Shown here: positions 1,376 to 30,829 of the stretch, in pieces
Layout: each line of letters starts with the position of its first letter
How positions within the stretch are numbered: position 1 is the first letter of the stretch
NCBI RefSeq assembly: GCF_902622435.1
Contig: NZ_CACNQB010000003.1
DNA: 64,000 nt
Direction: 5' to 3' (one strand)
Source of the DNA: an uncultured Prochlorococcus sp.
GTDB taxonomy: Bacteria > Cyanobacteriota > Cyanobacteriia > PCC-6307 > Cyanobiaceae
Notes under the pieces: model-generated
Told to the model about the DNA's origin: nothing
Database searches by the model: none
The model's input: the letters and a program-made list of their open reading frames with translations, nothing else
Program-made: the position numbers and the translations under genes

Positions 1376-1608
1376 AAACTTATTATTTAATATGCTTCAA
1401 TATGATAATAGCAAGTAGTTATAAAGAAAAATTACTCCAAAAACCATAAAAAAATAAATATAAAACCTTAAAACTACATAATAAGTAGCTACCATTCGCT
1501 AATTTTTAAATTTCTAGAAAAATCAACACAGTCGTTATTTTTATGCTTTAAGTTAATTAAATGAGTCTATTGTTTTCTTACGTTAAATATTCTGAGGCCA
1601 GTTTTCCT

Positions 1609-1797
1609 ATGACTGGTCAATATACAGCTCTTCTTTTAATAACTTCTGTTATTTGGGTTCTACTTTGGTTTGGATATAGACAAAATAAGATAAATGATGA
1701 GATCAAGAAAAAAGAAAAAGAAGAAAGAATTAATGCGAAAGTTCAAAGAAGAAAGAAGTTAGAGAGTTTGTACCCTACTAATAAAAAAACTGTTTAG
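1609..1797 (+). CDS. Small single-TM protein with charged tail (62 aa)
   Basis: ORF-track ORF 1561-1797; in-frame ATG at 1609 gives MTGQYTALLLITSVIWVLLWFGYRQNK. Confidence 0.7.
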   Translation: MTGQYTALLLITSVIWVLLWFGYRQNKINDEIKKKEKEERINAKVQRRKKLESLYPTNKKTV

Positions 1798-1815
1798 GTA
1801 AAATATTTTAGAAAC

Positions 1816-1914
1816 ATGAAAAAAAATAATTTCAAATCACTTATTCAGTACTTACCGGGGATTTTGATTCTTATTTATGTATTGTTTTTAGCATTTACTC
1901 AATTTATAAAATAA
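1816..1914 (+). CDS. 32-aa single-TM microprotein
   Basis: Hand translation MKKNNFKSLIQYLPGILILIYVLFLAFTQFIK. Confidence 0.5.
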   Translation: MKKNNFKSLIQYLPGILILIYVLFLAFTQFIK

Positions 1915-1935
1915 AATTTCAAAAAATTATTCGTT

Positions 1936-2808
1936 TTGATTGGAATCCTTTCTGCTTTTGGAGCTGCTACATCTTGGACATATGCGTGCTTTATTTGGCG
2001 CTCGCAAACTCAAAAATATAAATCAATAGATATTAATTTAATAAAAAATATAATAGCTTTTTTAATTTTTATACCTGCTTTTATCAATCTAAGTTCTACA
2101 ACTGAATTAAAAAACATATTTATCCTACTAATTAGTGGAATAATAGGTATTGGTTTAGGTGATACTTTCTATTTAAAGTCACTACAAACAATTGGCACAA
2201 GAAAAACTTTATCTATAGAAACTCTTTCTCCGTTAATGGCAGCTTTATCAGGGGAATTTTTTATTAATGAAAATTTAACAACTAAATCATGGGTTGGAAT
2301 AATTATAGTAACGATTTCGCTATTCATAATTCTCAGAAAAGGTAACGATTTTAAAGAGGAAAAATCCTCTTTCTCAGAAAAAAATAACTTTAAGATTTTT
2401 GCTTTTCCTCTTTTATCAGTTTTATGTGCTGTTCTTGGAGGTCTTTTATCAAGGATGGTTTTCCTTCAAAGCAATTTATCTCCTTTCCTTACAACTGAAA
2501 TAAGATTATTAGGTGCAATAATTTTTTTAATTAGTCTAAAAGGATTTAAGATTAATTTTTTATTAAAAAACATAGACAAAAAACAACAAAAAAGATTTTT
2601 TATTTCAATACTTCTTGGAACAAATGTAGGAATATTTCTACAACAAGTTGTGTTTAAAACCCTTCCCATAGGATTAGGGTGGGCTTTATTAAGCATATCG
2701 CCAGTAATTTCCTTATTTTTTGCTAAGACTGAGGAAAGAGAAATTACCCAAAAAATAATATTTTTTACTTGTTTTTTATTTTTTGGCTTGACATTAATAA
2801 TCCTTTAA
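1936..2808 (+). CDS. DMT/EamA family transporter
   Basis: About 10 hydrophobic segments, two-repeat architecture, GIIGIGLGDTFY motif. Confidence 0.88.
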   Translation: MIGILSAFGAATSWTYACFIWRSQTQKYKSIDINLIKNIIAFLIFIPAFINLSSTTELKNIFILLISGIIGIGLGDTFYLKSLQTIGTRKTLSIETLSPLMAALSGEFFINENLTTKSWVGIIIVTISLFIILRKGNDFKEEKSSFSEKNNFKIFAFPLLSVLCAVLGGLLSRMVFLQSNLSPFLTTEIRLLGAIIFLISLKGFKINFLLKNIDKKQQKRFFISILLGTNVGIFLQQVVFKTLPIGLGWALLSISPVISLFFAKTEEREITQKIIFFTCFLFFGLTLIIL

Positions 2809-2885
2809 TCTCTGAGTTAATGTAAAAAATACTCATGTTAACAAAAATCAAATTAAATAAAATTACCTTATTAACACTAAAAACA

Positions 2886-3008
2886 ATGAAAAAATTAAAG
2901 AAAAAAAGACTCGACACATTGGAAGTTTATGTTATTTTTTTAAGCTGCATTTATGCAGGCTTTATAGGTTATAAATCTCTATTAAATGTTTTATTTACTT
3001 GGAATTAA
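2886..3008 (+). CDS. 40-aa single-TM microprotein
   Basis: Hand translation MKKLKKKRLDTLEVYVIFLSCIYAGFIGYKSLLNVLFTWN. Confidence 0.55.
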   Translation: MKKLKKKRLDTLEVYVIFLSCIYAGFIGYKSLLNVLFTWN

Positions 3009-3139
3009 TTAATTCTTTCTAATGATTTAATCAACTTACCTCCATCTTGGTCATCATCATCATTTGAAGCGAAAAATAAAAAAAATATTCCTAAAGAGGC
3101 TATAGATAGCGAAATTGACAATACAGAAAGCTCATCCAT
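3005..3139 (-). CDS. 44-aa TM microprotein with DDDDQDGG acidic motif
   Basis: Hand translation MDELSVLSISLSIASLGIFFLFFASNDDDDQDGGKLIKSLERIN; motif shared with 4276-4458. Confidence 0.7.
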   Translation of the reverse strand: MDELSVLSISLSIASLGIFFLFFASNDDDDQDGGKLIKSLERIN

Positions 3140-3257
3140 AAATTAAAATTTTTTTTATGATAAACGAAAAAAAATAAAAGACAGTAAAGAAATACACATT
3201 CTCGAAAATAAATATTTCTTTTATTTGTAAAATGAAAAAACACAATCGAACTATTTC

Positions 3258-3533
3258 GTGAAAGTTCTAATAACTTCCCCCTGTAGTGCAAGCGTAATAA
3301 TTCAGTATGGAATGAAAAGTTGGCCTATTTGGGAATGTGAGCCAAGCAAATTTCAATGGAATTACGATGATAAGGAAATTTGCTTAATTATTGAAGGTCA
3401 AGCGAAAATAAGTACCCAAAACGGTGGCATTTACGTGATTAAAGCTGGAGATCTAGTTGAGTTTCCTGCTGGACTTAACTGCGAATGGGAAGTAACCAAA
3501 AGTATTAAAAAACATTATCGATTGGGTAACTAA
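3258..3533 (+). CDS. Cupin_3 (DUF861) family protein
   Basis: WPIWECEPSKFQWNYDDKEICLIIEG and IKAGDLVEFPAG cupin motifs. Confidence 0.88.
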   Translation: MKVLITSPCSASVIIQYGMKSWPIWECEPSKFQWNYDDKEICLIIEGQAKISTQNGGIYVIKAGDLVEFPAGLNCEWEVTKSIKKHYRLGN

Positions 3534-3624
3534 ACTTAAAAAAAAAGATTTTTTCTTCTTTACTGTTAAGTCAATGTGGATAAAATATGGTTAATAAATA
3601 ATTTTCAAGAAGGAAACTAATATT

Positions 3625-3795
3625 ATGCCTTTTACTGATCAAGAATATTTTGAGGTTATTGAAAAAAACGAAATAGTAAAAAAGGCCTTTAAAAATATTA
3701 AGGAAATTTGCATTGATTTACAAAAACAAACAAATTGTCCTGAAGAGGATCTAAAAGATTTTCTTGAATTTATTTCTAAACAATGGAATAAATAA
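3625..3795 (+). CDS. 56-aa hypothetical protein
   Basis: Hand translation MPFTDQEYFEVIEKNEIVKKAFKNIKEICIDLQKQTNCPEEDLKDFLEFISKQWNK; AGGA upstream. Confidence 0.7.
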   Translation: MPFTDQEYFEVIEKNEIVKKAFKNIKEICIDLQKQTNCPEEDLKDFLEFISKQWNK

Positions 3796-3859
3796 TAATT
3801 AAAAAGCCTTTTAAATACAAAATTTAAAATTTCAATTTAGTTTTCTGTGACAATAAGTT

Positions 3860-3991
3860 CTAATCTAATTCCTTTTTTGGTTTTGTATTGATACTGGAAG
3901 TCCCCTTAGCAGCAGAAACGAAGAAAAAGAAGCCTACAATTCCCGACATACCAAATATCGCAGCCAAAGGATCAAAAGTGAAAGAAAACAT
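3860..3991 (-). CDS. 43-aa single-TM microprotein
   Basis: Internal ATG of the track ORF gives MFSFTFDPLAAIFGMSGIVGFFFFVSAAKGTSSINTKPKKELD. Confidence 0.6.
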   Translation of the reverse strand: MFSFTFDPLAAIFGMSGIVGFFFFVSAAKGTSSINTKPKKELD

Positions 3992-4275
3992 AGAATTTAT
4001 AAAATCAAGATAAATAATAGTTTTTGAATCAAAATTGTACAATTATTGTTAAGTATAAAAAATAACAATCGTGCGATTCATTATGTCATTATTAGTTTCT
4101 CAGTAGGTTCAAAAAAATTATTAATCAAATTGGTTTTAAGAATAAAAATATCAATACATACCAAAGATCTATTAGTGCTAAAGAGAAAAGTTTTTAAAAA
4201 ATATTTATAGAAATATTGAATAAAACAGTGCCCAGAGGATCCACAATTATTGTTTCTTTAGATTAAGATCGATTT

Positions 4276-4458
4276 ATGACAGAATTATACTCAACTTCTT
4301 CCTCGGTAAGTCCTTTTACAGCGATATTATGGTGCTTTTATCCAATAGCTATACTTGTAATTATTGAATTACTTCTCGGGGGTGGGTTTGATGATGACAA
4401 CAATGACGATCAAGATGGTGGAATGCTAATACCTGCTTACTCAAGATCAGACGGTTGA
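4276..4458 (+). CDS. 60-aa TM microprotein with DDDNNDDQDGGMLIPAY motif
   Basis: ORF track; TM helix followed by acidic stretch and GGMLIP. Confidence 0.8.
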   Translation: MTELYSTSSSVSPFTAILWCFYPIAILVIIELLLGGGFDDDNNDDQDGGMLIPAYSRSDG

Positions 4459-4495
4459 ATTTTCTGAATTAGAGACTCATAAGGAATTTATTAAA

Positions 4496-4636
4496 TTGTC
4501 GAACAATATTGATACAACTCATATTTCTCTAATTACACTTATCATCCTTATAATTGCCTCACTAACCTGGTTCGTCTTAAGAACCCTTAAGGAAGGTAGA
4601 AAAGCTCTAACAGAAATAAATGAGGATAGATCATGA
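4496..4636 (+). CDS. 46-aa single-TM microprotein (TTG start)
   Basis: AAGGA upstream; MSNNIDTTHISLITLIILIIASLTWFVLRTLKEGRKALTEINEDRS. Confidence 0.6.
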   Translation: MSNNIDTTHISLITLIILIIASLTWFVLRTLKEGRKALTEINEDRS

Positions 4637-4881
4637 ATTTCAATAACATTCAAAAATGTAGAATTTGATTAGATTTATAAAACTCTTAGATTTATAAGTT
4701 TTACTAACTAAACAGATACATTACAAAAATTTAAAAACTTTTCCTTCTCAAAGTTTGGGAAAAGCATAAAAAACTTAAATAAATACTAGAATTTGTTAGA
4801 TTGCTAAGTCAAAAAATTACCAATCTATTGAAATCCCATTTTTATGAAAGGACTTCTTTGTTATTACTTTAATAAATAAAA

Positions 4882-4977
4882 ATGCATCTAAATTCTTTAC
4901 TTTATATTTGTTCTTTATCTTTATTCATTTATATTATGGCGCTGTTTTGGAGAGACTTGCCAAATCAAAAAAAGTAA
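4882..4977 (+). CDS. 31-aa TM microprotein (WRDL family)
   Basis: MHLNSLLYICSLSLFIYIMALFWRDLPNQKK; similar to 29481-29573. Confidence 0.6.
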   Translation: MHLNSLLYICSLSLFIYIMALFWRDLPNQKK

Positions 4978-5059
4978 ATAAATAATTAATATTAATTTTG
5001 TTGCTTATAAAAAAAAATTGAGTTATTAATTTAATATTGGATTTAATTTTTTTATATAA

Positions 5060-5224
5060 ATGCTGAAAAAATCTTCAAATAACAATAACAAAAACATATT
5101 CTCAAAAACTAACGGTATTGCAAAAGAAAAGATGATTTGCAAAGACGGATTCTGTTCATTACCAAATCAAGATGAGATTTCAAAACAAGATTCAAATGAT
5201 ATGAATTTATTTGATCCTATTTAG
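5060..5224 (+). CDS. 54-aa hypothetical protein with CKDGFC motif
   Basis: Hand translation ending KMICKDGFCSLPNQDEISKQDSNDMNLFDPI. Confidence 0.6.
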   Translation: MLKKSSNNNNKNIFSKTNGIAKEKMICKDGFCSLPNQDEISKQDSNDMNLFDPI

Positions 5225-5292
5225 TAAATAAATAATATTTTGATAAATTAAAGATTAAATTGATAATGTTAGATTCTTTGAATTTTTAACTT

Positions 5293-5634
5293 ATGTTTAA
5301 TGACTTTTTAAACGCATATAAAGAGTTTTGGATTAAAGCTACAGACTTCAAAGGATTCACATCTCGATCGGACTGGTGGTTAGTTCAACTAGCAAATCTT
5401 ATAATTTCATTCCTAACTATCCCAATATTTTTAAAGACTTTTGGTTTCAATGTTTATGGCATAGTTTGTATCATTCCTCAAATAGCTATTGATGTAAGAA
5501 GAATCAAAGATTTTGGAAAAGATTGGAAATGGATCTTTATTAATTTAATACCTATCTTAGGATGGATCTTGTGGTTCATCTGGCTAGGCTTTGGTAAGAC
5601 TGGTAATGGGAAAATAAACTTATATAGAAATTAA
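5293..5634 (+). CDS. DUF805 family membrane protein
   Basis: DFKGFTSRSDWW and IAIDVRRIKDFGKDWKW motifs. Confidence 0.85.
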   Translation: MFNDFLNAYKEFWIKATDFKGFTSRSDWWLVQLANLIISFLTIPIFLKTFGFNVYGIVCIIPQIAIDVRRIKDFGKDWKWIFINLIPILGWILWFIWLGFGKTGNGKINLYRN

Positions 5635-5638
5635 CTCC

Positions 5639-5956
5639 TCAATTTTTTCTTTTTTTAAAATCTACAAATCTTACCTTTTTTCTTAACTCTATTTGTTTTT
5701 CAAGAATCTTAAACACAAGCATCTCGCATTCGGTTAATTTAAGAAACTGATCGAGGGTATCTTTATCTTCTTCATCAAAATCTTCGAAAACTTCTGAAAT
5801 AGTAATACTATTTCTAGAAATAAAATCCTCTGCAACATCTTGTGGATTCTTTCCTGATTCGAAATACTGAAAAGCTTCATAAGAATTAAGTTCTCTCGTT
5901 AACCATTTAAACCATGGTTCATTTTTATTATTTTTTTTATTTATGATTTTCTTCAT
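5639..5956 (-). CDS. Hypothetical protein
   Basis: 105-aa acidic, helical ORF with no competing ORF. Confidence 0.75.
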   Translation of the reverse strand: MKKIINKKNNKNEPWFKWLTRELNSYEAFQYFESGKNPQDVAEDFISRNSITISEVFEDFDEEDKDTLDQFLKLTECEMLVFKILEKQIELRKKVRFVDFKKRKN

Positions 5957-6161
5957 GAAAAAATTTTTACTATTTTAATCATTATTAGTTATTTATTCTT
6001 TGACAGCTGTACAAATACTTATTTTAAAAAACCAATTAAAGATTATACTTATTTTTTTACAAAATAACTAACATAATTACCATAAAGTTTTTAAAGAATA
6101 AGTATTTATTACTTATTTTTTTGTTTATGGGATAGCTAGAATTTATTTTTAGTAAAGAACA

Positions 6162-6380
6162 TTGTCAATTCCATTTTACGACTTTCCTTCATCCCCAATT
6201 TTAATAATTGGTGCTCTTGGCATTGCAGTAGCGATAGCAGTTTTTTTTGTCTCTTACCAAAAATATTTCAATTCTCCTTTAAACAAAGAGCTTGCAGAAA
6301 AGAAAAAAGCCTTAATTAAGGAAAAAAAAGAATTAAATGAAAGATTAGAAAAAATAGAACAAGATTTAAAAAATTTATAA
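6162..6380 (+). CDS. TM plus coiled-coil small protein
   Basis: Hydrophobic N-terminal helix followed by a K/E-rich heptad tail. Confidence 0.75.
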   Translation: MSIPFYDFPSSPILIIGALGIAVAIAVFFVSYQKYFNSPLNKELAEKKKALIKEKKELNERLEKIEQDLKNL

Positions 6381-6465
6381 AAAATTACTTTAAATTGAGA
6401 TGAGTTAATGATCTCGAATTCAAGACCTTAATTTCTTTAACAGGAATTTTGGTCTATAAGGAGAT

Positions 6466-6621
6466 ATGGATAAAGATCATCTTATTGATTTAATTTCTAA
6501 TAGTCTTCTTTACGAGAGTAAAAATTCTGACACTAATAGGTATCTTAGTGACTTTAAAAATTACTTAGAAAGATTAAATCTTGATCAATTGAGAACTATG
6601 TCTAAAGAATTTATTCTTTAG
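6466..6621 (+). CDS. 51-aa hypothetical protein (MDKxHLIDLIS family)
   Basis: AAGGAG Shine-Dalgarno; paralog at 30089-30244. Confidence 0.75.
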   Translation: MDKDHLIDLISNSLLYESKNSDTNRYLSDFKNYLERLNLDQLRTMSKEFIL

Positions 6622-6702
6622 TATGATTTTTAAAATATTTCATTGTTTATTACATAATGAATACTTTTTAAAAATTGTTAGTATCACAAAAATAAAGGAA
6701 AT

Positions 6703-7809
6703 ATGCTCAAAGTAAATAGAAGTGATTTTTTAATAAAGCCATTTTTAAAAAGAAGTAATATGAGAGCTTCTTATCAAATTATTTCTACCATTTTCCCAAT
6801 AATTTCTATTTGGTTAATCGTCCACCAAATAATAAATCAACCTCTTTCATTATTGATTAAAGGATTTCTATTGGTACCTTTTATAGTCCTTCTAACTCTC
6901 TTATCTTCTCGTACATTCTCATTAATGCATGATTGCGGTCATAATTCTCTTTTTGCAAAACGAAAATTAAATCGTTTTTTTGGATTTTTACTTGGCTTGG
7001 TTAATGGTATACCCCAGAAGTCATGGTCAATTGATCATGCTTTTCATCATAGAAACAATGGAAATTGGGAAATTTACAAAGGGCCTATTGATGTTTTAAG
7101 TCTTGAAGATTATCAATCCCTTACAAAAAGAGATCAAATATTTTATAAAGTAAGTCGAAACTGGATGATGCTTTTCCCTGGCGGTTTTTTTTACTTAGTT
7201 TTAAAACCTAGATTAGGACTAGTTATTATTATTTTTAATTTCATTAAAGATATATTGGAAGAGACATTTATCAAAATAAAAAACAGAGATATTTCTCAAC
7301 TATTAGCTATTAATTCAAGATTCAAACCACCTTTTTCTGATTATGGAGATAATTTTAGTGAACTATGTGAATTAATAATCAACAACATAGTAGTAATAAT
7401 AGGGTGGATTTTTATGTGTAAATGGTTGGGGTTAGTTTTTTTCGTATCATTTTATTCCATTGTATTAACCTTATCAGCAGCAATTTTAATATGTGTTTTT
7501 TTCGTACAACATAACTACGAAAATGCATATGCTAAAAATACAAAAAATTGGGATCTCATCGATGGAGCTATTTTAGGGAGTAGCAATTTAGATATTCCTA
7601 ATTGGCTAAATTGGTTTTTAGCAGACATATCCTTCCACAGTATTCACCATCTCTCTGAGAGAATACCAAATTACAACTTAAGAGCTTGTCATAAAGCAAA
7701 CATTCATTTACTCCAACAATCAAAGTTCTTAAAATTAAGAGAATTTTCAAACTGTTTTAAATATATTATTTGGGATAATAAAAATGAAAAATTAATTCCT
7801 ATCAGTTAA
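6703..7809 (+). CDS. Membrane fatty acid desaturase
   Basis: Three His boxes: HDCGH, HAFHH, HSIHH. Confidence 0.92.
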   Translation: MLKVNRSDFLIKPFLKRSNMRASYQIISTIFPIISIWLIVHQIINQPLSLLIKGFLLVPFIVLLTLLSSRTFSLMHDCGHNSLFAKRKLNRFFGFLLGLVNGIPQKSWSIDHAFHHRNNGNWEIYKGPIDVLSLEDYQSLTKRDQIFYKVSRNWMMLFPGGFFYLVLKPRLGLVIIIFNFIKDILEETFIKIKNRDISQLLAINSRFKPPFSDYGDNFSELCELIINNIVVIIGWIFMCKWLGLVFFVSFYSIVLTLSAAILICVFFVQHNYENAYAKNTKNWDLIDGAILGSSNLDIPNWLNWFLADISFHSIHHLSERIPNYNLRACHKANIHLLQQSKFLKLREFSNCFKYIIWDNKNEKLIPIS

Positions 7810-7812
7810 TAC

Positions 7813-8557: not shown

Positions 8558-8695
8558 GATATTTTTTTCAATATATTTCTAATAGTGTTGATAAAAAAAG
8601 CAGCTTATAAGATTTTTTAAAATTTTATTTTAATTAATCAGATTTAAATAAAGATTAAGAACATTTTCATAAATTCTATAGTTTTATTTTAAAAA

Positions 8696-22397: not shown

Positions 22398-22412
22398 TTA
22401 GGAGAATAGAAA

Positions 22413-24014: not shown

Positions 24015-24051
24015 AAAACTACAAGCTGACTTGATAACAAATGAAGAATGA

Positions 24052-24723: not shown

Positions 24724-24800
24724 AAGATTACCCTCCTTAAATCTATATAAAAACTCTATAAGGTCAAAATAGGTATTGAATAGAGTTTAAATTCCTATTT

Positions 24801-24965
24801 TTAGCCATCGAGATTCTCTGGTAATAATCTAGGTTCACAATTTACGACGCATTCTTCTAGAGACTTTTCAGTATTACTCTTAATTTCGCAACTACGAAGA
24901 CAATCATAGAAGGCATACTTGGGATCTAATTCATTTTTGAATTGTTTATTTCTAAATGTATTCAT
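24801..24965 (-). CDS. 54-aa twin CX3C microprotein
   Basis: AAAGGGAG SD; YDCLRSC...EECVVNC. Confidence 0.7.
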   Translation of the reverse strand: MNTFRNKQFKNELDPKYAFYDCLRSCEIKSNTEKSLEECVVNCEPRLLPENLDG

Positions 24966-24967
24966 GA

Positions 24968-25075
24968 TCAAACTCCCTTTGATTTTTTTTCAAGTTGATT
25001 AATTAATTTATCCAACCAAAGAGTGTTATTGATCTTTTTTATGTTTTTAAAGTATTTCGTTTTGTAAGTACTCAT
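24968..25075 (-). CDS. 35-aa microprotein (NNTxWLDxLIN family)
   Basis: GGAGG SD; MSTYKTKYFKNIKKINNTLWLDKLINQLEKKSKGV. Confidence 0.7.
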   Translation of the reverse strand: MSTYKTKYFKNIKKINNTLWLDKLINQLEKKSKGV

Positions 25076-25266
25076 GAAGTAAAACCTCCAATCAGTGGAT
25101 CTAATTTAAAGGTGATGATTCAAATTTGCTAGAGCAAAAATACTGATTATGAATTTAGTGAAATATTTTAAAAACGATTAATTTATAGTTTGTATTTTAG
25201 GTATTAAAACTCTTGATTCTTATATATAACTAATACTAAATAACTTCTAAAGAAAGGGGGTTAATT

Positions 25267-25437
25267 ATGACTTACGGAAATCTAATTAAAAATAAAATTC
25301 AACATGCATTTGTTGGTCTGTTTGATACGTTATCAATTGAGAGAAAACTAACTGATGCTCAAAAAGAATGTATGCAATTCGGAATTTGTGCGTACTCTCC
25401 AAGACAAGTTAAGGAAGTTCCCTTTTTTCATTATTAA
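25267..25437 (+). CDS. 56-aa hypothetical protein
   Basis: AAGGGGG SD; MTYGNLIKNKIQHAFVGLFDTLSIERKLTDAQKECMQFGICAYSPRQVKEVPFFHY. Confidence 0.65.
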   Translation: MTYGNLIKNKIQHAFVGLFDTLSIERKLTDAQKECMQFGICAYSPRQVKEVPFFHY

Positions 25438-25464
25438 TTTTAATTTATTTTAAACGAAGAGCAA

Positions 25465-25779
25465 TTAGCTCCTCCTCACCCAATCAGGCGATCCACTAAA
25501 CCAATCAGCAAGATCATCATTTTTGGGATCGAAATGATTTTCAGCTTCTAGACCATCAAGGCCAAGATTCTGGATAAGTCCATTTATTCCATCTGATTTT
25601 TGCTTGCCATATCTCCTCAAACTATTTGCTTTCTTAAGCCATGTCCATATAGTTGAATTATGTTTTGCAAACTTTTCTACATAAATTCTTTCTTCCAATG
25701 CCACAGGTTCATCTAGTGAAATCCTATTTACAATATCCTTGATTTTTAAACGAGTTTTGTTGGTTAGAAACATATTCAT
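25465..25779 (-). CDS. Hypothetical protein
   Basis: 104-aa ORF with conserved-looking C-terminus DDLADWFSGSPDWVRRS. Confidence 0.8.
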   Translation of the reverse strand: MNMFLTNKTRLKIKDIVNRISLDEPVALEERIYVEKFAKHNSTIWTWLKKANSLRRYGKQKSDGINGLIQNLGLDGLEAENHFDPKNDDLADWFSGSPDWVRRS

Positions 25780-26060
25780 AAAAGAAGTTAATGATTTATA
25801 AAAGTTTTTTTTATGAATGTCTTGTCAATCTTTATTTCAAGAAAAAGTATTTTTTAATGGCTTTTCAAGGACAAATATATTTATTTAACAACAGGTATAT
25901 TGAATTGGTAAAAAAGACTACTTAATTTGATTTATATAACTTATATAAAAAAGACTTCTATATAAGTTTCTCTACATAATTTAAGATTTAATTTATAAAA
26001 TTTAATAAGGAAAATATACATTGACAAACAATCTAAAATAATGGGCAATTAGCTCTTTTT

Positions 26061-26438
26061 TTAATAGCAAAGTACGCTATCCGCTTTAATTGATTCTTCA
26101 ACTAGAACATCTGGCATAACAAACTCTGCAGTATATCCATCTAGAAGCTTTTCATCGTAACCCCTAGATTTAGCAGACATTCCTGAGACATATATGGTAA
26201 TTTTTGAATTCTTTAAATTTTGAAGATGTTCGTATAAATCTCCAGTACCTTGACCAACTATTTCACCAGCTTTTTTGCAATTTAATATTTGTACTCCGTC
26301 TCCTGCTAGAAAAAGTGTTACTTTATGGTCGTTTTTTTCTGCAGTAAGGGCAACCAATAAACCTAAAGTTATTTTATTTTTGGATTCTAAACCGCTGTAA
26401 ATATGTACTAACACTGTATTGTCGGTAATGATAGACAT
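26061..26438 (-). CDS. DsrE family protein
   Basis: VTLFLAGDGV motif, GGAGG SD; the usual catalytic Cys position reads VSGMSAKSRG. Confidence 0.82.
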   Translation of the reverse strand: MSIITDNTVLVHIYSGLESKNKITLGLLVALTAEKNDHKVTLFLAGDGVQILNCKKAGEIVGQGTGDLYEHLQNLKNSKITIYVSGMSAKSRGYDEKLLDGYTAEFVMPDVLVEESIKADSVLCY

Positions 26439-26539
26439 TTAATCCTCCCTAAATTTTGTTTTTATATCTTAAATAAAATCTATTTTCATTAGATGTTTTT
26501 TTATGAAACGCTTACTACTTGTACCTCTATATTAATTAC

Positions 26540-26586
26540 GATTGACAGTCGATCTAAAATAAGGGGCATTAGCTCCTTTTTTAATG
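26540..26586 (+). repeat. Island repeat module, copy 2
   Basis: GATTGACAGTCGATC-TAAAAT-AAGGGGCATTAGCTCCTT-T tract-AATG (start of the DUF3804 gene). Confidence 0.85.
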
Positions 26587-26967
26587 TCAAACACTAAAGC
26601 CATAGAAGATTTAATTAATGGTTATGCAACCAGTGAAGATTCTTCTTTTCTAATACCAAACGTAACTGAGGATTTTTTAGCTGTAAGACCAAGTGGAAAT
26701 CCAATATCTGCTAAGGGATTAGTGGGAATGTTTGATAGTAAAGACTTAATTGCAGAATCATCAGAACTAATCAAAACCCACAAAATTGAAATTTACGGTG
26801 AGATAGCTTACGCAGTTTTTACTTTAAATGAAATCTTCAGTTATAAAGGAAATCAAAATAAAGATCTTTCAACTTATACTTGCATTTTTAAAAATGTAAA
26901 TGGTATTTGGAAGTATTCTTGGATGCAAAGATCTCAAGGCACTACTGATATGACCACATGGGAATAA
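26584..26967 (+). CDS. DUF3804 / SnoaL-NTF2-like protein
   Basis: AVRPSGNP and WMQRS motifs; paralog of 18186. Confidence 0.85.
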   Translation: MSNTKAIEDLINGYATSEDSSFLIPNVTEDFLAVRPSGNPISAKGLVGMFDSKDLIAESSELIKTHKIEIYGEIAYAVFTLNEIFSYKGNQNKDLSTYTCIFKNVNGIWKYSWMQRSQGTTDMTTWE

Positions 26968-27117
26968 ATGAAACGATTACTACTCCCACCACTGTTCAAA
27001 CTATTCAACAAAAGCACCTTCTTTTCGTCACTAAATCAAAATACCTGCCCTGTCTTGGATGCTGAAGAGATAAAAAAGCAAGAACAAAATGAAGCTATTA
27101 AAAAGTTATATCCATAA
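26968..27117 (+). CDS. 49-aa microprotein, duplicate A
   Basis: MKRLLLPPLFKLFNKSTFFSSLNQNTCPVLDAEEIKKQEQNEAIKKLYP; paralog at 30513. Confidence 0.75.
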   Translation: MKRLLLPPLFKLFNKSTFFSSLNQNTCPVLDAEEIKKQEQNEAIKKLYP

Positions 27118-27296
27118 AATTTAAACAGAAATTTCTTAGGTCATATTAAAAGCTTTTGAACGATCGTATATTCCCCATACCATCCATCACTTTCCTAAAT
27201 AGGAACTTTGCATGATAATTAATATATAAAAGCGAATAGTATGCTGATACATTCACGATTCGTTCACGATTTGCAATTTACTCCAAATCCTTTGAT

Positions 27297-27341
27297 ATGA
27301 CTAAAGAAAATTTTTGGATAATGAACCATGTACCAGCTTGA
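27297..27341 (+). pseudogene. 5' remnant of the EVE-domain gene
   Basis: MTKENFWIMNHVPA* versus MTEKNFWLMKSEP at 30830; upstream CCTTTGATATG versus CCCTTGATATG. Confidence 0.7.
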
Positions 27342-27442
27342 TATAACTAGGTTTTTTGAAATTTATAAATTTTATTCTAGCAAAATTCTAGCAACACTAA
27401 TAAATATAAAGCATCCATTGAGGTAAAGATTTAGGATAATTT

Positions 27443-27495
27443 GTGATTGACATTCGATCTAAACTTAGAGGGATAAAACCCTCTTTTTTTTGATG
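27443..27495 (+). repeat. Island repeat module, copy 3
   Basis: GTGATTGACATTCGATC-TAAACT-TAGAGGGATAAAACCCTCT-T tract-GATG. Confidence 0.9.
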
Positions 27496-27666
27496 AGAAA
27501 CAAATTTAAAAGATCAGCTTTTTTTGATATGTCTGATGACCTTTTCTATCGAATATCATTAATAGGATTTTTAGTTGTTTTTAGCTCAATGGTATTTTTC
27601 CTAACGAAATATAGAGAAAAAAAAGTTAATAATATAAGCCAGATTTCCATAACTGAACAAATTTAA
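27493..27666 (+). CDS. 57-aa single-TM microprotein
   Basis: MRNKFKRSAFFDMSDDLFYRISLIGFLVVFSSMVFFLTKYREKKVNNISQISITEQI. Confidence 0.6.
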   Translation: MRNKFKRSAFFDMSDDLFYRISLIGFLVVFSSMVFFLTKYREKKVNNISQISITEQI

Positions 27667-27680
27667 TTTATAAAGCAGTA

Positions 27681-28037
27681 ATGCAAAGATTTATAATTTC
27701 ACCGTTATTTGCTTTATCTAGGTTTTTTATAAATATTTACGGAATATTTTTAAAGTTTTTTCTTCAATTAAATGGTGGTTATTGGTCAAGAATTGGTTTA
27801 GCCGAAAATATTACAGAGGAAAGAATTAAAAAAAGAAGATTTTATATCCTGCCTTTTTATATTCTTCTAGCTTTATTGTTTGGATTACTATCTGCTCTAT
27901 ATTGGTATTTTGTTATTCTTCATGTGCCACTTTCAATAGAAAGATATTTAAGTCCATTGAATAACAATATTGCTTTAATAATTGCTTTTGCTACTTTCTT
28001 TGGTTGGCTTTATATTCTTTGTAAAACAAACAAATAA
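27681..28037 (+). CDS. Hypothetical membrane protein
   Basis: 118 aa with two or three hydrophobic segments. Confidence 0.75.
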   Translation: MQRFIISPLFALSRFFINIYGIFLKFFLQLNGGYWSRIGLAENITEERIKKRRFYILPFYILLALLFGLLSALYWYFVILHVPLSIERYLSPLNNNIALIIAFATFFGWLYILCKTNK

Positions 28038-28139
28038 AATGCTTACTGAGAGATGATGTGGTCCGCGGATTAAAGATTTAATTAATCATGATTAAATCAT
28101 TCTTAAGGATTCATGCAAAATATTTATGACCGATTAATT

Positions 28140-28452
28140 TGTATTTACGACAGTTCTGGTGATCGACTCGACCAAGGTTGACCAACTAGATCTTCACTAA
28201 TCCATGGTCTGCAACACCAAGGTAAATTAACTTATCTAACCTTTACGGTAAGAAAGTTAAGTGATCAGAAATTAATCTTTCGGGATTAATTCTGAACTAT
28301 CTTAAAAATAAAGTCGTTTGTAAAGCATGAAGAAGTGAGTAATCACTTTTACATTCAAAACTAATTTCTAAGAAAATTCTTAATCTGATTATTAAATAGA
28401 TCTCCTTTCTGTCGTCACCATTTAAAAAAGACCTGTAAAAGGGTCTTTTTTT
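28140..28452 (+). ncRNA. Candidate ~300-nt structured RNA
   Basis: GC-rich 5' part; hairpins at 28228-28259, 28266-28294 (UUCG loop) and 28333-28348 (GUAA loop); CTCCTTT at 28402; terminator; no ORF over 25 aa seen. Confidence 0.55.
28424..28452. terminator. Bidirectional intrinsic terminator
   Basis: AAAAAAGACCT-GTAAAA-GGGTCTTTTTTT. Confidence 0.85.
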
Positions 28453-28503
28453 ATGTCTTAAATTTTATTTATTTACTGTTAATCCACAAATAATTAAATA
28501 TTT

Positions 28504-28635
28504 TTATCTCGCTCTTTCGCGATCAGTTAATGCTTTTTCAAAAGTAAAAAAGAAAGTACAAATGCTATTCAATGCAACCAACAAAAGAACTACTGATCTT
28601 CCATGTTGATTTAATTGAAGTGATCTTTGAGTCAT
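28504..28635 (-). CDS. 43-aa single-TM microprotein
   Basis: Starts 4 nt after the previous stop; MTQRSLQLNQHGRSVVLLLVALNSICTFFFTFEKALTDRERAR. Confidence 0.6.
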   Translation of the reverse strand: MTQRSLQLNQHGRSVVLLLVALNSICTFFFTFEKALTDRERAR

Positions 28636-28639
28636 ACTT

Positions 28640-28822
28640 TTAATAATCTTCATTGTAATCGGATGGACTACCAGTTAAAGAACAAACAACTGATTCCTCT
28701 TTTTTCATTTCTTTTATTTCCATTATTGGTCTGCCCATTTTCTTAAGAACATCTATATCTTCTTTAGTCTGACAGCGTGCAATTATATTTCCTTTTTGAT
28801 CAAAGCAACTGTAGTAAGTCAT
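28640..28822 (-). CDS. 60-aa hypothetical protein
   Basis: ORF track; MTYYSCFDQKG...VVCSLTGSPSDYNEDY. Confidence 0.8.
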   Translation of the reverse strand: MTYYSCFDQKGNIIARCQTKEDIDVLKKMGRPIMEIKEMKKEESVVCSLTGSPSDYNEDY

Positions 28823-28846
28823 TTTATTAAATGCAATTTAACGTTC

Positions 28847-28892
28847 ATGGTTGATTTCAGTTGCAGCAACGCAACCGACTCATGACAACCAT
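28847..28892 (-). promoter_or_regulatory. Structured 5' leader candidate
   Basis: Outer stem ATGGTTG/CAACCAT enclosing inner stem TCGGTTGC/GCAACTGA, 25 nt upstream of the ATG at 28822. Confidence 0.5.
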
Positions 28893-29049
28893 ATTTCTAA
28901 TTTAGGTCAGCCATAGATTTAAATGGCTAAAAAAACATACCTCTTTCCGTACCTAAATGTTCCTCAAACCGCACACATTAGATACGCAGTGTTTTAGTCA
29001 AATCAATTAGAAAAAAGAGGTAGTTAAACGAATATACAAAGGAGAATTT

Positions 29050-29187
29050 ATGAGTGGAGATTTTGAGACTCTTGAAATTAATCAACCAAAAATTAAATAT
29101 TTAAAACCAGAAGATAATACAAAATGGTTAGACAAATTAATTAATAATATTAAGGACATGAAGAGGAAGATATCAAAAGATTCTTAG
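29050..29187 (+). CDS. 45-aa microprotein (NNTxWLDxLIN family)
   Basis: GGAG SD; MSGDFETLEINQPKIKYLKPEDNTKWLDKLINNIKDMKRKISKDS. Confidence 0.7.
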   Translation: MSGDFETLEINQPKIKYLKPEDNTKWLDKLINNIKDMKRKISKDS

Positions 29188-29321
29188 AAATTTAAGAAAG
29201 AAACATTTTTATTTGACCTTTAGTTTGAATGAAAAGAAATTCAAAAAAGAATTTAAATTTTGTATTTAAGGTAACCGCTTTTTTGTGAGCATTATTCAGA
29301 ATAAGAGTCCGACTATTTTTT

Positions 29322-29465
29322 ATGCAAAAAAATTTAGATGAAAATTCTTATGAAAAAAGAATTGAAAATATAGAAAAAGGAAAATCTTATTTAAAAAGTA
29401 ATGGATTTTTCAAATCAAAATCTAATCTTTTCGAAGACATACAAAGATTTATCTATAAAAGGTAA
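29322..29465 (+). CDS. 47-aa hypothetical protein
   Basis: MQKNLDENSYEKRIENIEKGKSYLKSNGFFKSKSNLFEDIQRFIYKR. Confidence 0.5.
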   Translation: MQKNLDENSYEKRIENIEKGKSYLKSNGFFKSKSNLFEDIQRFIYKR

Positions 29466-29480
29466 TTTAAAAAATATTTT

Positions 29481-29573
29481 TTACTTTTGATTAATTAAAT
29501 CTCTCCATAAGCAAGCCATCACATAAAAGAAAGAAAGACTTGAAAAGGTAAAGAGAAAAAAAGAATGGGTCAA
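29481..29573 (-). CDS. 30-aa TM microprotein (WRDL family, TTG start)
   Basis: MTHSFFLFTFSSLSFFYVMACLWRDLINQK; similar to 4882-4977. Confidence 0.55.
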   Translation of the reverse strand: MTHSFFLFTFSSLSFFYVMACLWRDLINQK

Positions 29574-29583
29574 TTTTCTATAA

Positions 29584-29688
29584 CTAAATTAGACCAAATA
29601 ATCCTGCAGTAAAACCAACAGCCGAAAAGAATGTGAACTCAATCAAATCTCTTGGGGCAGAGTTCATAAATAAACCAATTTGAGTCAT
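29584..29688 (-). CDS. 34-aa TM microprotein
   Basis: MTQIGLFMNSAPRDLIEFTFFSAVGFTAGLFGLI; starts 4 nt after the previous stop. Confidence 0.65.
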   Translation of the reverse strand: MTQIGLFMNSAPRDLIEFTFFSAVGFTAGLFGLI

Positions 29689-29692
29689 GATT

Positions 29693-29887
29693 TTATGACT
29701 TGAGAGAATCTTTTAAATCAAACTTTTCAGCTTTTTCAATTTGACACTCAGTATCATCTTCAGCACATTTGATTTCAGCTTTTTTGTTCATGTGGCTACT
29801 ACAACCGCCTGCTATAACTGGTAAACCGGTCGTAGCCGTAAAACCAGTTAAACATGCAAAAGCTATATAAGGAAAAAGTCTTTTCAT
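29693..29887 (-). CDS. 64-aa exported Cys-containing protein
   Basis: Signal-like MKRLFPYIAFACLTGFTA followed by GGCSSH..CAEDDTEC. Confidence 0.8.
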   Translation of the reverse strand: MKRLFPYIAFACLTGFTATTGLPVIAGGCSSHMNKKAEIKCAEDDTECQIEKAEKFDLKDSLKS

Positions 29888-29890
29888 TTA

Positions 29891-29908
29891 ATTGTTACTT
29901 TATGTAAA
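29891..29908 (-). promoter_or_regulatory. HLR1-like direct repeat
   Basis: TTTACATA-AA-GTAACAAT (one mismatch) just upstream of the ATG at 29887. Confidence 0.55.
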
Positions 29909-30088
29909 TTTATTATGTTACATAAAAAGCTCAAGTGTGAGTAGCTGATAATTCGCGTGCACCCTATACCAATCATCTAAAGTGATTTAGCAAACCTATG
30001 AGTTTTATATTTATCTGAGTATTTTTACTTATATGTTGAGTTGAAGACTTTAAATAATTAATGTTTGTTTTGGGTTTATATATAAGTA

Positions 30089-30244
30089 ATGGATAAAGAA
30101 CATTTAATTGATTTAATATCTAGCAGCATTATTTCTGAGATTAAAGATCTCCAAATTAATGAGCAAAAATTGATTGCAAATAATTATTTAAATAATCTGA
30201 ATTTAAATCAGCTTAGAATAATTTCTAAAGAATTTATTTTGTAA
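30089..30244 (+). CDS. 51-aa hypothetical protein (MDKxHLIDLIS family)
   Basis: Same length and termini as 6466-6621. Confidence 0.75.
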   Translation: MDKEHLIDLISSSIISEIKDLQINEQKLIANNYLNNLNLNQLRIISKEFIL

Positions 30245-30326
30245 TTTTTATTGAATATTTATTTAAATAAATGAGATTTTCTTTACTATCATTTGAATTT
30301 GAATAAGTTAATACCTTTTAATTAAT

Positions 30327-30512
30327 ATGAATGATTCAGAAGAATTTAAACCTAGCCTTAAACAAATAAATGAGGATATCAGACCTACATGGGAAGATAT
30401 CAAAAAACAATCAGAAGTTTTAGTTAACAAACTTGGTTGCCCTAGATCATTTGTAGGAGGGATGCTTCATGCAATAGCAAGCGACTTCTCTGATATGAAA
30501 ACTTGGGAATAA
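30327..30512 (+). CDS. 61-aa hypothetical protein ending in a DUF3804-like DMKTWE tail
   Basis: ORF track; last six codons match the end of the 26584 gene. Confidence 0.75.
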   Translation: MNDSEEFKPSLKQINEDIRPTWEDIKKQSEVLVNKLGCPRSFVGGMLHAIASDFSDMKTWE

Positions 30513-30662
30513 ATGAAAAACTTGTTACTTACACCACTTTTCAAACTATTCAAAAAAAGCACTTTTCTCTTATCACTAAATCAAAACTCGTGCCCTGTTT
30601 TATATGCTGAAGACATAAAAAAGCAAGAACAGAAAGAAGCTATTGAAAGGTTGTACCCGTAA
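30513..30662 (+). CDS. 49-aa microprotein, duplicate B
   Basis: MKNLLLTPLFKLFKKSTFLLSLNQNSCPVLYAEDIKKQEQKEAIERLYP. Confidence 0.75.
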   Translation: MKNLLLTPLFKLFKKSTFLLSLNQNSCPVLYAEDIKKQEQKEAIERLYP

Positions 30663-30666
30663 ACTT

Positions 30667-30732
30667 TTAACAGAAATGTATCAGATCATATATACGATGC
30701 AGCACGGTCCTATGCACCCCCATGCCACCCAT
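30667..30732 (-). CDS. Candidate 21-aa peptide
   Basis: AGGAAAG SD; MGGMGVHRTVLHRIYDLIHFC; a homologous frame exists in duplicate A. Confidence 0.4.
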   Translation of the reverse strand: MGGMGVHRTVLHRIYDLIHFC

Positions 30733-30829
30733 TACTTTCCTAAATTGTGACTTTGATGGATAATAAACATATAAAAAAAATCTGATTCTAGCAAAATTCT
30801 AGCAGATAAATTCCTTCAATTCCCTTGAT

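Follow-up and report, generated by a model that had tools for sequence, protein, structure and literature searches.

Are the many very short open reading frames (ORFs) at positions 1400-30800 of this Prochlorococcus DNA real genes, do their products form a class of single-helix membrane proteins, and what might such proteins do? The window, by which we mean the whole 64,000-nucleotide stretch analyzed (contig NZ_CACNQB010000003.1, assembly GCF_902622435.1), has a G+C content of 23 to 39% and comes from contig C3 of a genome of 1.52 Mb in 18 contigs. The initial annotation had described an island largely made of microproteins, with more than 40 ORFs of fewer than 70 amino acids (aa) in 29 kb, about 25 of them having one transmembrane (TM) helix, and had read these as small membrane modulators. 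We report that this region consists mostly of conserved micro-genes, half of them encoding predicted membrane helices, and that what merits further work is how two or three of these microprotein families keep a conserved linkage to high-light-inducible (hli) genes in hosts and cyanophages.

All ORFs of at least 25 aa were aligned to orthologous congener DNA (78 loci, 766 kb; more than 50 congeners), and dN/dS (omega) was calculated by the Nei-Gojobori method (NG86) in all six frames. An ORF passed the pooled test when dN/dS was below 0.4 against 3 to 21 distinct orthologous sequences, its start was conserved, and premature stops did not exceed 10%. After refinement of the starts, 62 nonoverlapping ORFs at 1400-30900 passed, 47 of which are of at most 80 aa and 44 of fewer than 70 aa. 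The passing ORFs had an omega of 0.05 to 0.40 in their own, stop-free frame, and the other frames gave values of about 1 or above and many stops. Addition by hand of weaker candidates and paralogs brought the list to 79 genes (61 of at most 80 aa, 59 of fewer than 70 aa). Because pooled pairwise counts reuse shared branches and their P values are inflated by common ancestry, a single-pair test was added, in which each gene is compared once, with its most divergent intact ortholog, free of pseudoreplication. In this test, 34 of the 61 small genes and 18 of 28 TM genes gave P < 0.01. As judged by these comparisons, about 55 separate genes of 29 to 80 aa are kept by purifying selection, and the view that the micro-ORFs are real genes held at the codon level, with conserved starts and no premature stops relative to congener DNA.

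Antisense shadow ORFs at 7515-7628 (-), 5478-5579 (-), 14434-14601 (-), 25604-25684 (+), 29769-29870 (+) and 3888-4013 (+) were rejected; their low omega comes from sharing third codon positions with real genes, and stops and unconserved starts excluded them.

Gene arrangement gave a mixed picture of the remaining arguments for real genes. Stop/start overlaps were as described, with eight same-strand overlaps or abutments, including the triple 21345/21458/21595. The statement that many of the ORFs have clear Shine-Dalgarno (SD) sequences was too strong: an SD-like 4-mer at -18 to -4 precedes 9 of the 61 small genes, against a background of 6.5%, and such motifs fall mainly in the right half of the region. 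Paralog families within the window were confirmed by blastp, which found nine; those with TM segments are only hli, 4882/29481 and the tail shared by 3005 and 4276, and further paralog copies lie in other low-density regions of the genome (C1, C4, C5 and C15).

The region is the densest micro-gene cluster of the genome. It is the most extreme 29-kb window genome-wide, with ORFs of at least 100 aa covering 36% of it versus a median of 90%, and it has 38 intergenic TM-like ORFs versus a genome median of 3. With all 79 genes counted, its coding share is 64%. Several spacers of 300 to 500 nucleotides (nt), such as 28038-28503, contain no conserved ORF and no Rfam match. Three more low-density regions (G000 C1:45-80 kb, C5:1-10 kb and C4:1-10 kb; long-ORF cover, 52 to 66%) hold many small TM-like ORFs, paralogs of window micro-genes and further hli clusters.

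We then asked how many of the products are membrane proteins. TM segments were called where a 19-residue Kyte-Doolittle (KD) hydropathy window reached 1.6 or more, as it does in 28 small proteins. With the Hli protein 11956-12063 (KD 1.57) added to these 28, 24 single-helix microproteins, 3 of them Hli, are well supported (pooled omega of at most 0.30) and have frames intact in 6 to 20 distinct relatives; five candidates (18563, 19291, 19437, 27493 and 28504) are weak or doubtful. The helix is usually near the N terminus. About half of the proteins carry a basic tail (+2 or more), and 3005 and 4276 an acidic one; the tail of 29693, a signal peptide candidate, is mildly acidic, and the others are near neutral.

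It might be argued that most of these TM-like micro-ORFs are chance reading frames, created by T-rich codons (Phe, Leu and Ile) in DNA of 27% G+C. AT-rich DNA does yield about 20 spurious TM-like ORFs here: 100 dinucleotide shuffles of the region gave 19.7 +/- 4.2 such ORFs of 30 to 80 aa, and about 20 of the 46 found in the real sequence fail conservation, with an omega of at least 0.5, stops in relatives or overlap with real genes (for example, 2765-2917, 3132-3245, 5026-5142, 10737-10844 and 16860-16997). However, the observed 46 (or 31 versus 9.5 +/- 2.8 with ATG starts only) lies 6 to 8 standard deviations above the shuffles, the surplus of about 26 agrees with the size of the conserved set, the 24 ORFs listed below have low omega and intact frames, and MED4 orthologs are transcribed. 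The density claimed at the outset thus survives comparison with shuffled DNA; for the conserved set the chance explanation is already refuted, and we give it almost no credence. The 24 well-supported genes are as follows (omega, pooled dN/dS; n, number of orthologous sequences; PMED4 numbers, MED4 matches).

1561-1797 (+), single-TM microprotein, 78 aa, basic tail; omega 0.08, n = 15, single-pair P = 2e-13; PMED4_15421; NCBI nr, about 1,000 contigs
1816-1914 (+), single-TM microprotein, 32 aa; omega 0.17, n = 16, P = 2e-4; exact sequence not found in the public protein collection
2886-3008 (+), single-TM microprotein, 40 aa; omega 0.26, n = 17, ATG 17/17; PMED4_15442; 3' end overlaps convergent 3005-3139 by 4 nt
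3005-3139 (-), TM microprotein, 44 aa, acidic DDDDQDGG tail; omega 0.14, n = 17; PMED4_15451; NCBI nr; tail paralog of 4276-4458 (blastp tail match)
3860-3991 (-), single-TM microprotein, 43 aa; omega 0.11, n = 18, ATG 18/18; PMED4_15481; cluster members named "hypothetical protein [Prochlorococcus]"
4276-4458 (+), TM microprotein, 60 aa, poly-Asp tail; omega 0.14, n = 20; phrog_7843, 5e-21 (profile positions 3-56 of 59); PMED4_15491
4496-4636 (+), single-TM microprotein, 46 aa, TTG start; omega 0.23, n = 15, P = 2e-4
4882-4977 (+), single-TM microprotein, 31 aa; omega 0.12, n = 17; paralog of 29481-29573, E = 1e-6
6162-6380 (+), TM and coiled-coil microprotein, 72 aa; omega 0.17, n = 16; phrog_14199, 2e-16
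9026-9157 (+), single-TM microprotein, 43 aa, basic tail; omega 0.06, n = 14, one of the most constrained micro-genes here; PMED4_15652; NCBI nr, about 500 contigs
11429-11593 (-), single-TM microprotein, 54 aa, basic tail; omega 0.18; PMED4_15712
11956-12063 (+), Hli protein, 35 aa; phrog_178; ATG 14/14
12063-12203 (+), Hli protein, 46 aa; Chloroa_b-bind (Pfam PF00504), phrog_20629; start overlaps the stop of 11956-12063 by 1 nt
12647-12781 (+), single-TM microprotein, 44 aa, upstream of Yfr20; omega 0.08; PMED4_15791
12837-13043 (-), Hli protein, 68 aa; omega 0.05; phrog_178, 1e-26
13494-13595 (+), single-TM microprotein, 33 aa; omega 0.16; PMED4_15792
15951-16094 (-), single-TM microprotein, 47 aa, basic tail; omega 0.10, n = 19; NCBI nr
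21345-21461 (+), single-TM microprotein, 38 aa, first of overlapped triple; omega 0.12, n = 20; ATGA overlap with 21458-21598; NCBI nr, hypothetical protein
21458-21598 (+), single-TM microprotein, 46 aa, second of triple; omega 0.25, n = 20; ATGA overlaps on both sides
21595-21690 (+), single-TM microprotein, 31 aa, third of triple; omega 0.25, n = 20
24565-24723 (-), single-TM microprotein, 52 aa, Cys-containing tail; omega 0.30, n = 6; strong SD, AGGAGG
29481-29573 (-), TM microprotein, 30 aa; omega 0.29, no stops; paralog of 4882-4977
29584-29688 (-), C-terminal-TM microprotein, 34 aa (EFxFF...GxTAGxxG); omega 0.22; phrog_17067, 2e-4
29693-29887 (-), 64-aa protein, N-terminal hydrophobic segment, Cys-rich tail, possibly a signal peptide; omega 0.11

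Most TM families are restricted to the high-light (HL) genus; nine families (4276, 3005, 12647, 29584, 19291, 21037, 6162, 1561 and 29693) reach other Prochlorococcus lineages. Of 10 TM microproteins checked, NCBI nr/UniRef already lists seven under the name "hypothetical protein [Prochlorococcus]," some of them from about 1,000 contigs, and the exact sequences of the three shortest of the 10 (31 to 33 aa) were not found there.

Placing the region in a known genome showed how much of it had been seen before. A relative, G015, carries 1539-14450 of the window in the same order at 1317837-1339820 (DNA search), and the tblastn starts of window proteins in it are identical to the printed ORF coordinates of strain MED4 (BX548174; Steglich et al. 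2008, Table S2), for example, 1321009, 1329124, 1336192 and 1336734. Therefore, G015 is MED4. By gene order, 1400-30800 is the counterpart of MED4 at about 1.318 to 1.35 Mb, and the stretch is the HL-II-type Prochlorococcus counterpart of MED4 genomic island 5 (ISL5) plus a conserved left-hand segment, as judged from its orthologous position and gene order relative to ISL5 and its flank and from the presence of Yfr20 (13278-13364) with hli genes nearby (11956-13043). Genomic island 5 of MED4 contains Yfr20 (1336435), with hli11/12 less than 2 kb away, and PMED4_15491 (1321009) was termed "in vicinity of genomic island 5" (Steglich et al. 2008, PMC2518516). In the window, 12647-12781 is upstream of Yfr20, with hli 12837-13043 between them on the opposite strand; this layout (12647-13364) is the split arrangement of MIT9312 and MIT9515 and not the MED4 dicistron of PMED4_15791 with Yfr20 (Steglich et al. 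2008, PMC2518516).

The term "island" proved half right. From 1400 to about 16000, the region is syntenic with HL-II genomes (83 to 94% identity) and HL-I genomes (70 to 77%), MED4 included, which fits the report that HL islands are mostly common to all HL strains and vertically inherited (Doré et al. 2020). The right half (about 16000-30800) is a mosaic, matching relatives piecewise at differing loci and contigs. Within it, 26020-26990 (a DsrE gene and flanks) is 95 to 98% identical in many congeners, but at differing loci and contigs. Its MED4 match, 86% identical where 70 to 77% is usual, lies a long way from ISL5, at about 0.35 Mb. The piece resembles a cassette exchanged in the recent past.

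The existence of the micro-genes, their annotation and their transcription in MED4 were already known, and the array is a described feature of HL Prochlorococcus (ISL5 and flank). In MED4, 113 short transcribed ORFs of 33 to 130 aa were reported, 89 of which are also in the reannotation of Kettler et al. 2007; phage homologs (PSSM4_181 and PSSM2_278) were noted for PMED4_15491, the ortholog of 4276-4458, and MED4 island 5 genes respond to P starvation and high light (Steglich et al. 2008, PMC2518516). Table S2 of that study includes PMED4_15xxx/16xxx ORFs, detected as transcripts in MED4, to which at least 19 micro-genes of the window correspond, most as orthologs and some as best paralog hits (Steglich et al. 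2008, PMC2518516).

Searches for function pointed almost only to Hli. Among the 61 small proteins, only Hli matched Pfam (searched with X-linked concatenations, which slightly weakens E values) or NCBIfam, and the TM microproteins matched no PADLOC family and no PDB chain sequence. The Hli genes matched phrog_178 (2e-37 and 1e-26), phrog_20629 (3e-30) and PF00504, and the ExxNGRxAMxGF motif is present in the three Hli proteins (AEKLNGRFAMIGF, AEKVNGRWAMVGF and AERFNGWAAMLGF) and absent from the other 25 TM microproteins. Hli 11956-12063 is 94% identical to a copy in phage P-HM1 (L081), and Hli 12837-13043 is 94% identical to viral-contig copies. The host Hli proteins stand far nearer to those of viral loci L081 and L089 (94%) than any neighboring gene does to a viral sequence, as would fit a recent exchange of hli between host and phage.

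Besides Hli, PHROG profiles matched three families, 4276-4458, 6162-6380 and 29584-29688. No match was obtained by tblastn of the concatenated TM proteins, or of 6162-6380 alone, against the phage collection, and 4276-4458 alone gave a weak partial match only; the probable cause is that TM and poly-Asp segments are masked as low-complexity sequence, and PHROG profiles and a pattern scan of viral contigs recovered phage homologs that tblastn had missed. In myovirus P-HM1, the homologs of 4276-4458 (PHM1_203) and 29584-29688 (PHM1_204; E = 3e-7) stand in the order hli03 (three copies), hli04, PHM1_203, PHM1_204, followed by genes that include heme oxygenase. The 4276 homolog is directly 3' of two to five tandem hli genes in all 18 viral loci recovered. 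The 29584 homolog comes after it in 5 of these 18 and elsewhere in the locus in one more, and two loci (L092 and L098) have the 6162 homolog within the hli cluster itself. The linkage extends beyond phages for 4276 and 29584: in other Prochlorococcus genera (low-light lineages), hli is within about 2 kb of the 4276 family in 17 of 20 loci, and the order hli, 29584 family, 4276 family on one strand occurs in seven or eight, with a single hli hit in the outer parts of the 20 loci. Motifs are invariant across hosts and phages in both families, LWC[FY]YP...E (helix Glu)...poly-Asp...GG.MIP for 4276 (35-sequence alignment) and R[DE]L.EF.FF...G.TAG..G for 29584. These observations suggest that the 4276 and 29584 families are Hli-associated partners. 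Linkage to hli in cyanophages is positive functional evidence for only three families, 4276, 29584 and 6162.

We consider it fairly probable that the small single-pass membrane proteins are accessory partners of membrane complexes in light and nutrient stress, with an Hli-linked subset common to cyanophages. From helix prediction onward, the steps are ones that we infer. The microproteins are predicted to be single-pass proteins of the thylakoid or cytoplasmic membrane, which by the positive-inside rule would mostly be N-out/C-in, and would serve larger membrane complexes as small accessory or regulatory partners under light and nutrient stress, a role known for the three Hli proteins in the set. 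The best-supported subset comprises the 4276-4458 family (with its tail relative, 3005-3139), the 29584-29688 family and the 6162-6380 family, which T4-like cyanophages carry within or just after the hli cluster and which most likely cooperate with Hli in photoprotection or pigment handling. The remaining half of the small genes encode soluble products, several of them Cys rich or basic. Of the original idea of small membrane modulators, what stands is that the genes are real and that about half are predicted to be single pass; no known family, structure or defense model matches them.

Several points weigh against this explanation. Most TM micro-genes have neither a phage copy nor an informative neighbor, and for these the idea of a partner in a membrane complex comes only by analogy with the small subunits known from cyanobacteria. 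The viral and low-light loci were chosen by their 4276 homolog and are partly orthologous, so that 18 of 18 and 17 of 20 do not count independent events. In HL genomes the linkage is broken: in the window, 4276-4458 does not directly follow hli, and 4276 and 29584 lie 7.5 and 17 kb from it. The TM calls come from a simple hydropathy window, and the five weak candidates named above are among them.

The micro-genes could also be taken as phage-derived "moron" genes that serve phage-host conflict (superinfection exclusion, holin/antiholin-like membrane control or receptor masking) and not photosynthetic physiology. Three families and hli are common to T4-like cyanophages, viral copies share 94% identity with the host Hli 12837-13043, and the right half is a mosaic with cassettes at differing loci in relatives. 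However, phage copies exist for only 3 of about 25 TM families and sit in the photosynthesis gene region (hli and heme oxygenase), not in lysis or early-gene blocks; PADLOC found no match, and inheritance of the left half has been vertical in the HL clades. We regard this origin as unlikely. Quite unlikely, in our judgment, is that the hydrophobic microproteins are toxins of type I toxin-antitoxin systems, or similar self-poisoning peptides, of a kind often found on islands and under antisense RNA control. Size, single helix, charged tail and island location would fit Hok-, Ldr- or TisB-like toxins, and antisense RNAs are reported in this MED4 region, with toxin-antitoxin pairs discussed for Yfr6/Yfr14 and Yfr8/Yfr9 at other places in the genome (Steglich et al. 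2008, PMC2518516). Yet none of the 61 proteins matched a Pfam toxin family (Hok, Ldr, TisB, Ibs, ShoB, Fst and others) at an E value of 0.05 or below, hits other than Hli being at chance level; the four antisense RNAs listed for this part of MED4 (asMED4_15701, 15721, 15771 and 16031) face no TM micro-gene ortholog; many genes keep their position across HL-I and HL-II with an omega of about 0.1, unusual for addiction modules; and phages place homologs within the hli cassette.

For some of the proteins the hydrophobic N terminus might instead be a cleaved signal peptide and the product, Cys-rich ones included, secreted or periplasmic. In 29693-29887, an N-terminal hydrophobic stretch ending in AGGC precedes an acidic, Cys-rich tail; 26968-27117 and 30513-30662 start with MKxLLLxPLFKLF, and several soluble neighbors are Cys rich. 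Most TM segments, unlike those of exported peptides, precede short basic tails or are C-terminal (29584 and hli), and we hold this alternative to be very unlikely. Returning to accessory partners of membrane complexes, a more specific form is possible but tentative: the hli cassette would be a multipart module, made up of Hli, a 34-aa GxTAGxxG helix (29584) and a 60-aa poly-Asp-tailed helix (4276/3005), that forms a hetero-oligomeric photoprotective or pigment-handling complex and is carried whole by T4-like cyanophages to sustain host photosynthesis. If so, the ISL5 array would be a reservoir, specific to the clade, from which thylakoid complexes draw further accessory helices.

Because the genes, their MED4 transcription and the island were published before, the array itself is no discovery. 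What the analysis adds is one island confirmed to consist mainly of conserved micro-genes, of which half encode predicted membrane helices, with a ranked list for small-protein proteomics or tagging, and a hypothesis of Hli partners that is directly testable because of the conserved hli linkage in hosts and cyanophages.

The remaining small ORFs comprise the five weak or doubtful TM candidates and products that are soluble or borderline in hydropathy.

3625-3795 (+), soluble microprotein, 56 aa; omega 0.14, n = 15; PMED4_15471
5060-5224 (+), soluble microprotein, 54 aa, weaker support; omega 0.41, no stops; PMED4_15511
6466-6621 (+), soluble microprotein, 51 aa; omega 0.31, n = 19; paralog of 30089-30244, 57% identity, E = 7e-17
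7813-7965 (-), soluble basic microprotein, 50 aa; omega 0.11; PMED4_15601
8254-8412 (+), Cys-rich (twin CX3C) microprotein, 52 aa; omega 0.20; PMED4_15621; weak paralog of 24801-24971; overlaps 8405-8557 by 8 nt
8405-8557 (+), soluble microprotein, 50 aa; omega 0.10; PMED4_15631
8696-8836 (-), soluble microprotein, 46 aa; omega 0.23; PMED4_15651
10676-10837 (+), soluble microprotein, 53 aa; omega 0.06, n = 15, P = 7e-15
13719-13838 (-), Cys-containing soluble microprotein, 39 aa; omega 0.27, n = 11
16432-16530 (+), Cys-rich (zinc-ribbon-like) microprotein, 32 aa; omega 0.28, n = 13
17702-17896 (-), soluble microprotein, 64 aa; omega 0.08, n = 17
17942-18064 (-), borderline hydrophobic microprotein (KD 1.46), 40 aa; omega 0.11, n = 20
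18563-18652 (+), TM ORF, 29 aa, weak support; omega 0.40, ATG 15/15; overlaps the DUF3804 stop
19053-19154 (-), 33-aa ORF downstream of the glutamine-II riboswitch; AGGAG SD-like motif; omega 0.40 (longest ORF)
19291-19437 (-), TM microprotein, 48 aa, weak support within the genus; omega 0.56, 0 stops in 19 sequences
19437-19610 (-), TM-like ORF, 57 aa, doubtful; relatives have premature stops at several positions
19957-20076 (+), 39-aa microprotein; omega 0.33; paralog of 24390-24497, E = 5e-12
20223-20432 (+), basic soluble microprotein, 69 aa; omega 0.30, n = 17
20757-20960 (+), soluble protein, 67 aa, weaker support; omega 0.47 (longest ORF), ATG 20/21
21037-21192 (+), moderately hydrophobic microprotein, 51 aa; omega 0.20, n = 20; homologs outside the genus
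22058-22210 (+), Cys-rich soluble microprotein, 50 aa; ATG 20/20; paralog of 22413-22559, E = 2e-6; best MED4 match PMED4_15771
22296-22397 (+), borderline TM (KD 1.58) microprotein, 33 aa; omega 0.27, n = 21; strong SD, AGGAGG; best MED4 match PMED4_15762
22413-22559 (+), Cys-rich soluble microprotein, 48 aa; omega 0.28, n = 21; PMED4_15981 at 81%
24052-24168 (-), soluble microprotein, 38 aa; omega 0.15; family with 24968-25075 and 29050-29187
24390-24497 (+), 35-aa microprotein; omega 0.15, n = 18; paralog of 19957-20076
24801-24971 (-), Cys-rich soluble microprotein, 56 aa; omega 0.29, n = 10
24968-25075 (-), soluble microprotein, 35 aa; omega 0.21, n = 10; 4-nt overlap with the next gene
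25267-25437 (+), 56-aa ORF, weak support; omega 0.55, 2 stops in 6 sequences
26968-27117 (+), 49-aa microprotein abutting the DUF3804 stop; omega 0.16; paralog 30513-30662, 78% identical
27493-27666 (+), TM ORF, 57 aa, few relatives; n = 3, omega 0.80
28504-28635 (-), TM ORF, 43 aa, weak support; omega 0.46, ATG 10/10
28640-28822 (-), soluble microprotein, 60 aa; omega 0.11; 78% identical paralog on C1
29050-29187 (+), soluble microprotein, 45 aa; family with 24052-24168; best MED4 match PMED4_16021; AGGAG upstream
29322-29465 (+), soluble microprotein, 47 aa; omega 0.10
30089-30244 (+), soluble microprotein, 51 aa; paralog of 6466-6621, E = 7e-17
30327-30512 (+), 61-aa ORF, few relatives; n = 3, near-identical sequences
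30513-30662 (+), 49-aa microprotein; omega 0.27; paralog of 26968-27117

The 49-aa gene is present in four copies that are 67 to 80% identical (26968-27117, 30513-30662, G000 C1:54218-54364 and C15:6644-6790), and both window copies begin right after the upstream stop, with the shared junction GAATAAATGAAA. On the minus strand, the TM ORF 19291-19437 is followed by the glutamine-II riboswitch (19174-19236) and the 33-aa ORF 19053-19154, which has a C-terminal YRGxxY motif; DUF4278 was not recovered for it in the Pfam search on X-linked concatenations, in which E values are slightly weakened. Homologs of 19291-19437 occur in more than 20 other genera and, like those of 21037, reach genomes of 2.4 to 2.7 Mb.

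The hli genes, two fatty-acid desaturase (FA_desaturase) genes and LptF/LptG named as neighbors at the outset are all present (Pfam and PHROG). The larger proteins and RNAs of the region and its flanks are as follows; the five unassigned larger proteins among them matched no PADLOC family.

131-1375 (-), HI0933-like flavoprotein, core gene, left flank; PF03486, 8e-71
1936-2808 (+), EamA-type transporter, 290 aa; PF00892, 1e-22; omega 0.24
3258-3533 (+), cupin_3 protein, 91 aa; PF05899, 2e-23
5293-5634 (+), DUF805 membrane protein, 113 aa; PF05656, 2e-13
5639-5956 (-), 105-aa protein, no family (Pfam, PADLOC); omega 0.26
6703-7809 (+), fatty-acid desaturase, 368 aa; PF00487, 2e-30
9394-10560 (+), fatty-acid desaturase, 388 aa; PF00487, 2e-22
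13278-13364 (+), Yfr20 small RNA; Rfam RF02367, 81 bits
14021-15226 (+), LptF/LptG permease, 401 aa; PF03739, 9e-74
15282-15866 (-), DUF1543 protein, 194 aa; PF07566, 3e-35
16619-17140 (-), 173-aa protein, no family (Pfam); 54% identity to MED4
17294-17674 (+), DoxX membrane protein, 126 aa; PF07681, 7e-12
18186-18572 (+), DUF3804 protein, paralog of 26584-26967; PF12707, 2e-55
19174-19236 (-), glutamine-II riboswitch aptamer; Rfam RF01704, 58 bits
22640-23158 (+), 172-aa protein, no family (Pfam); omega 0.22
23160-24014 (+), LOG/"lysine decarboxylase"-family protein; PF03641, 6e-29
25465-25779 (-), 104-aa protein, no family (Pfam); omega 0.06
26061-26438 (-), DsrE-family protein; PF02635, 2e-13
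26584-26967 (+), DUF3804 protein; PF12707, 7e-51
27681-28037 (+), two-TM protein, 118 aa; omega 0.31
30830-31288 (+), EVE-domain protein, right flank; PF01878, 2e-52

In the right part of the window are groEL/ES and ATP synthase genes; the ATP synthase operon contains the cyanobacterial ATPC RNA motif at 53586-53676 (-) (Rfam, 99 bits), as expected in a cyanobacterium.

Among known systems, the closest is ISL5 of MED4 (Coleman et al. 2006). From 1400 to about 16000, the window agrees with MED4 in gene content and gene order, and Yfr20, hli, the desaturases and LptF/G all belong to this shared part. The window differs from it in being an HL-II-type genome with about 70 to 80% DNA identity here and in the content and order of its right half (about 16000-30800), whose cassettes lie at other loci in relatives. 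The published work on ISL5 does not describe a single-helix bias. Three window genes are themselves members of the Hlip/Scp family; the other TM microproteins are like them in size, single helix and island location but have neither the ExxNGRxAMxGF chlorophyll-binding motif nor a Chloroa_b-bind match.

Small single-helix proteins of 30 to 60 aa with short charged tails are known among photosynthetic and NDH subunits (PsbI/J/K/L/M/T/X/Y, PsaI/J/M, PetG/L/M/N and NdhP/Q) and among bacterial membrane regulators (MgtS, AcrZ and CydX). By analogy, the window TM microproteins resemble these in size and plan. None matched the small subunits of photosystem II, photosystem I, cytochrome b6f or NDH-1, or the bacterial regulators, in Pfam, or PDB chains at an E value of 1 or below, and unlike the known small subunits, most are restricted to Prochlorococcus, chiefly the HL genus. 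The likeness to phage genes is one of homology: 4276-4458, 29584-29688 and 6162-6380 have homologs in cyanophage clusters T4-GC 437/554 (P-HM1 PHM1_203/PHM1_204) and PHROGs 7843, 905, 17067 and 14199, all annotated "hypothetical." The T4-GC 437/554 genes adjoin hli in phages and in low-light Prochlorococcus, whereas in the window they are dispersed.

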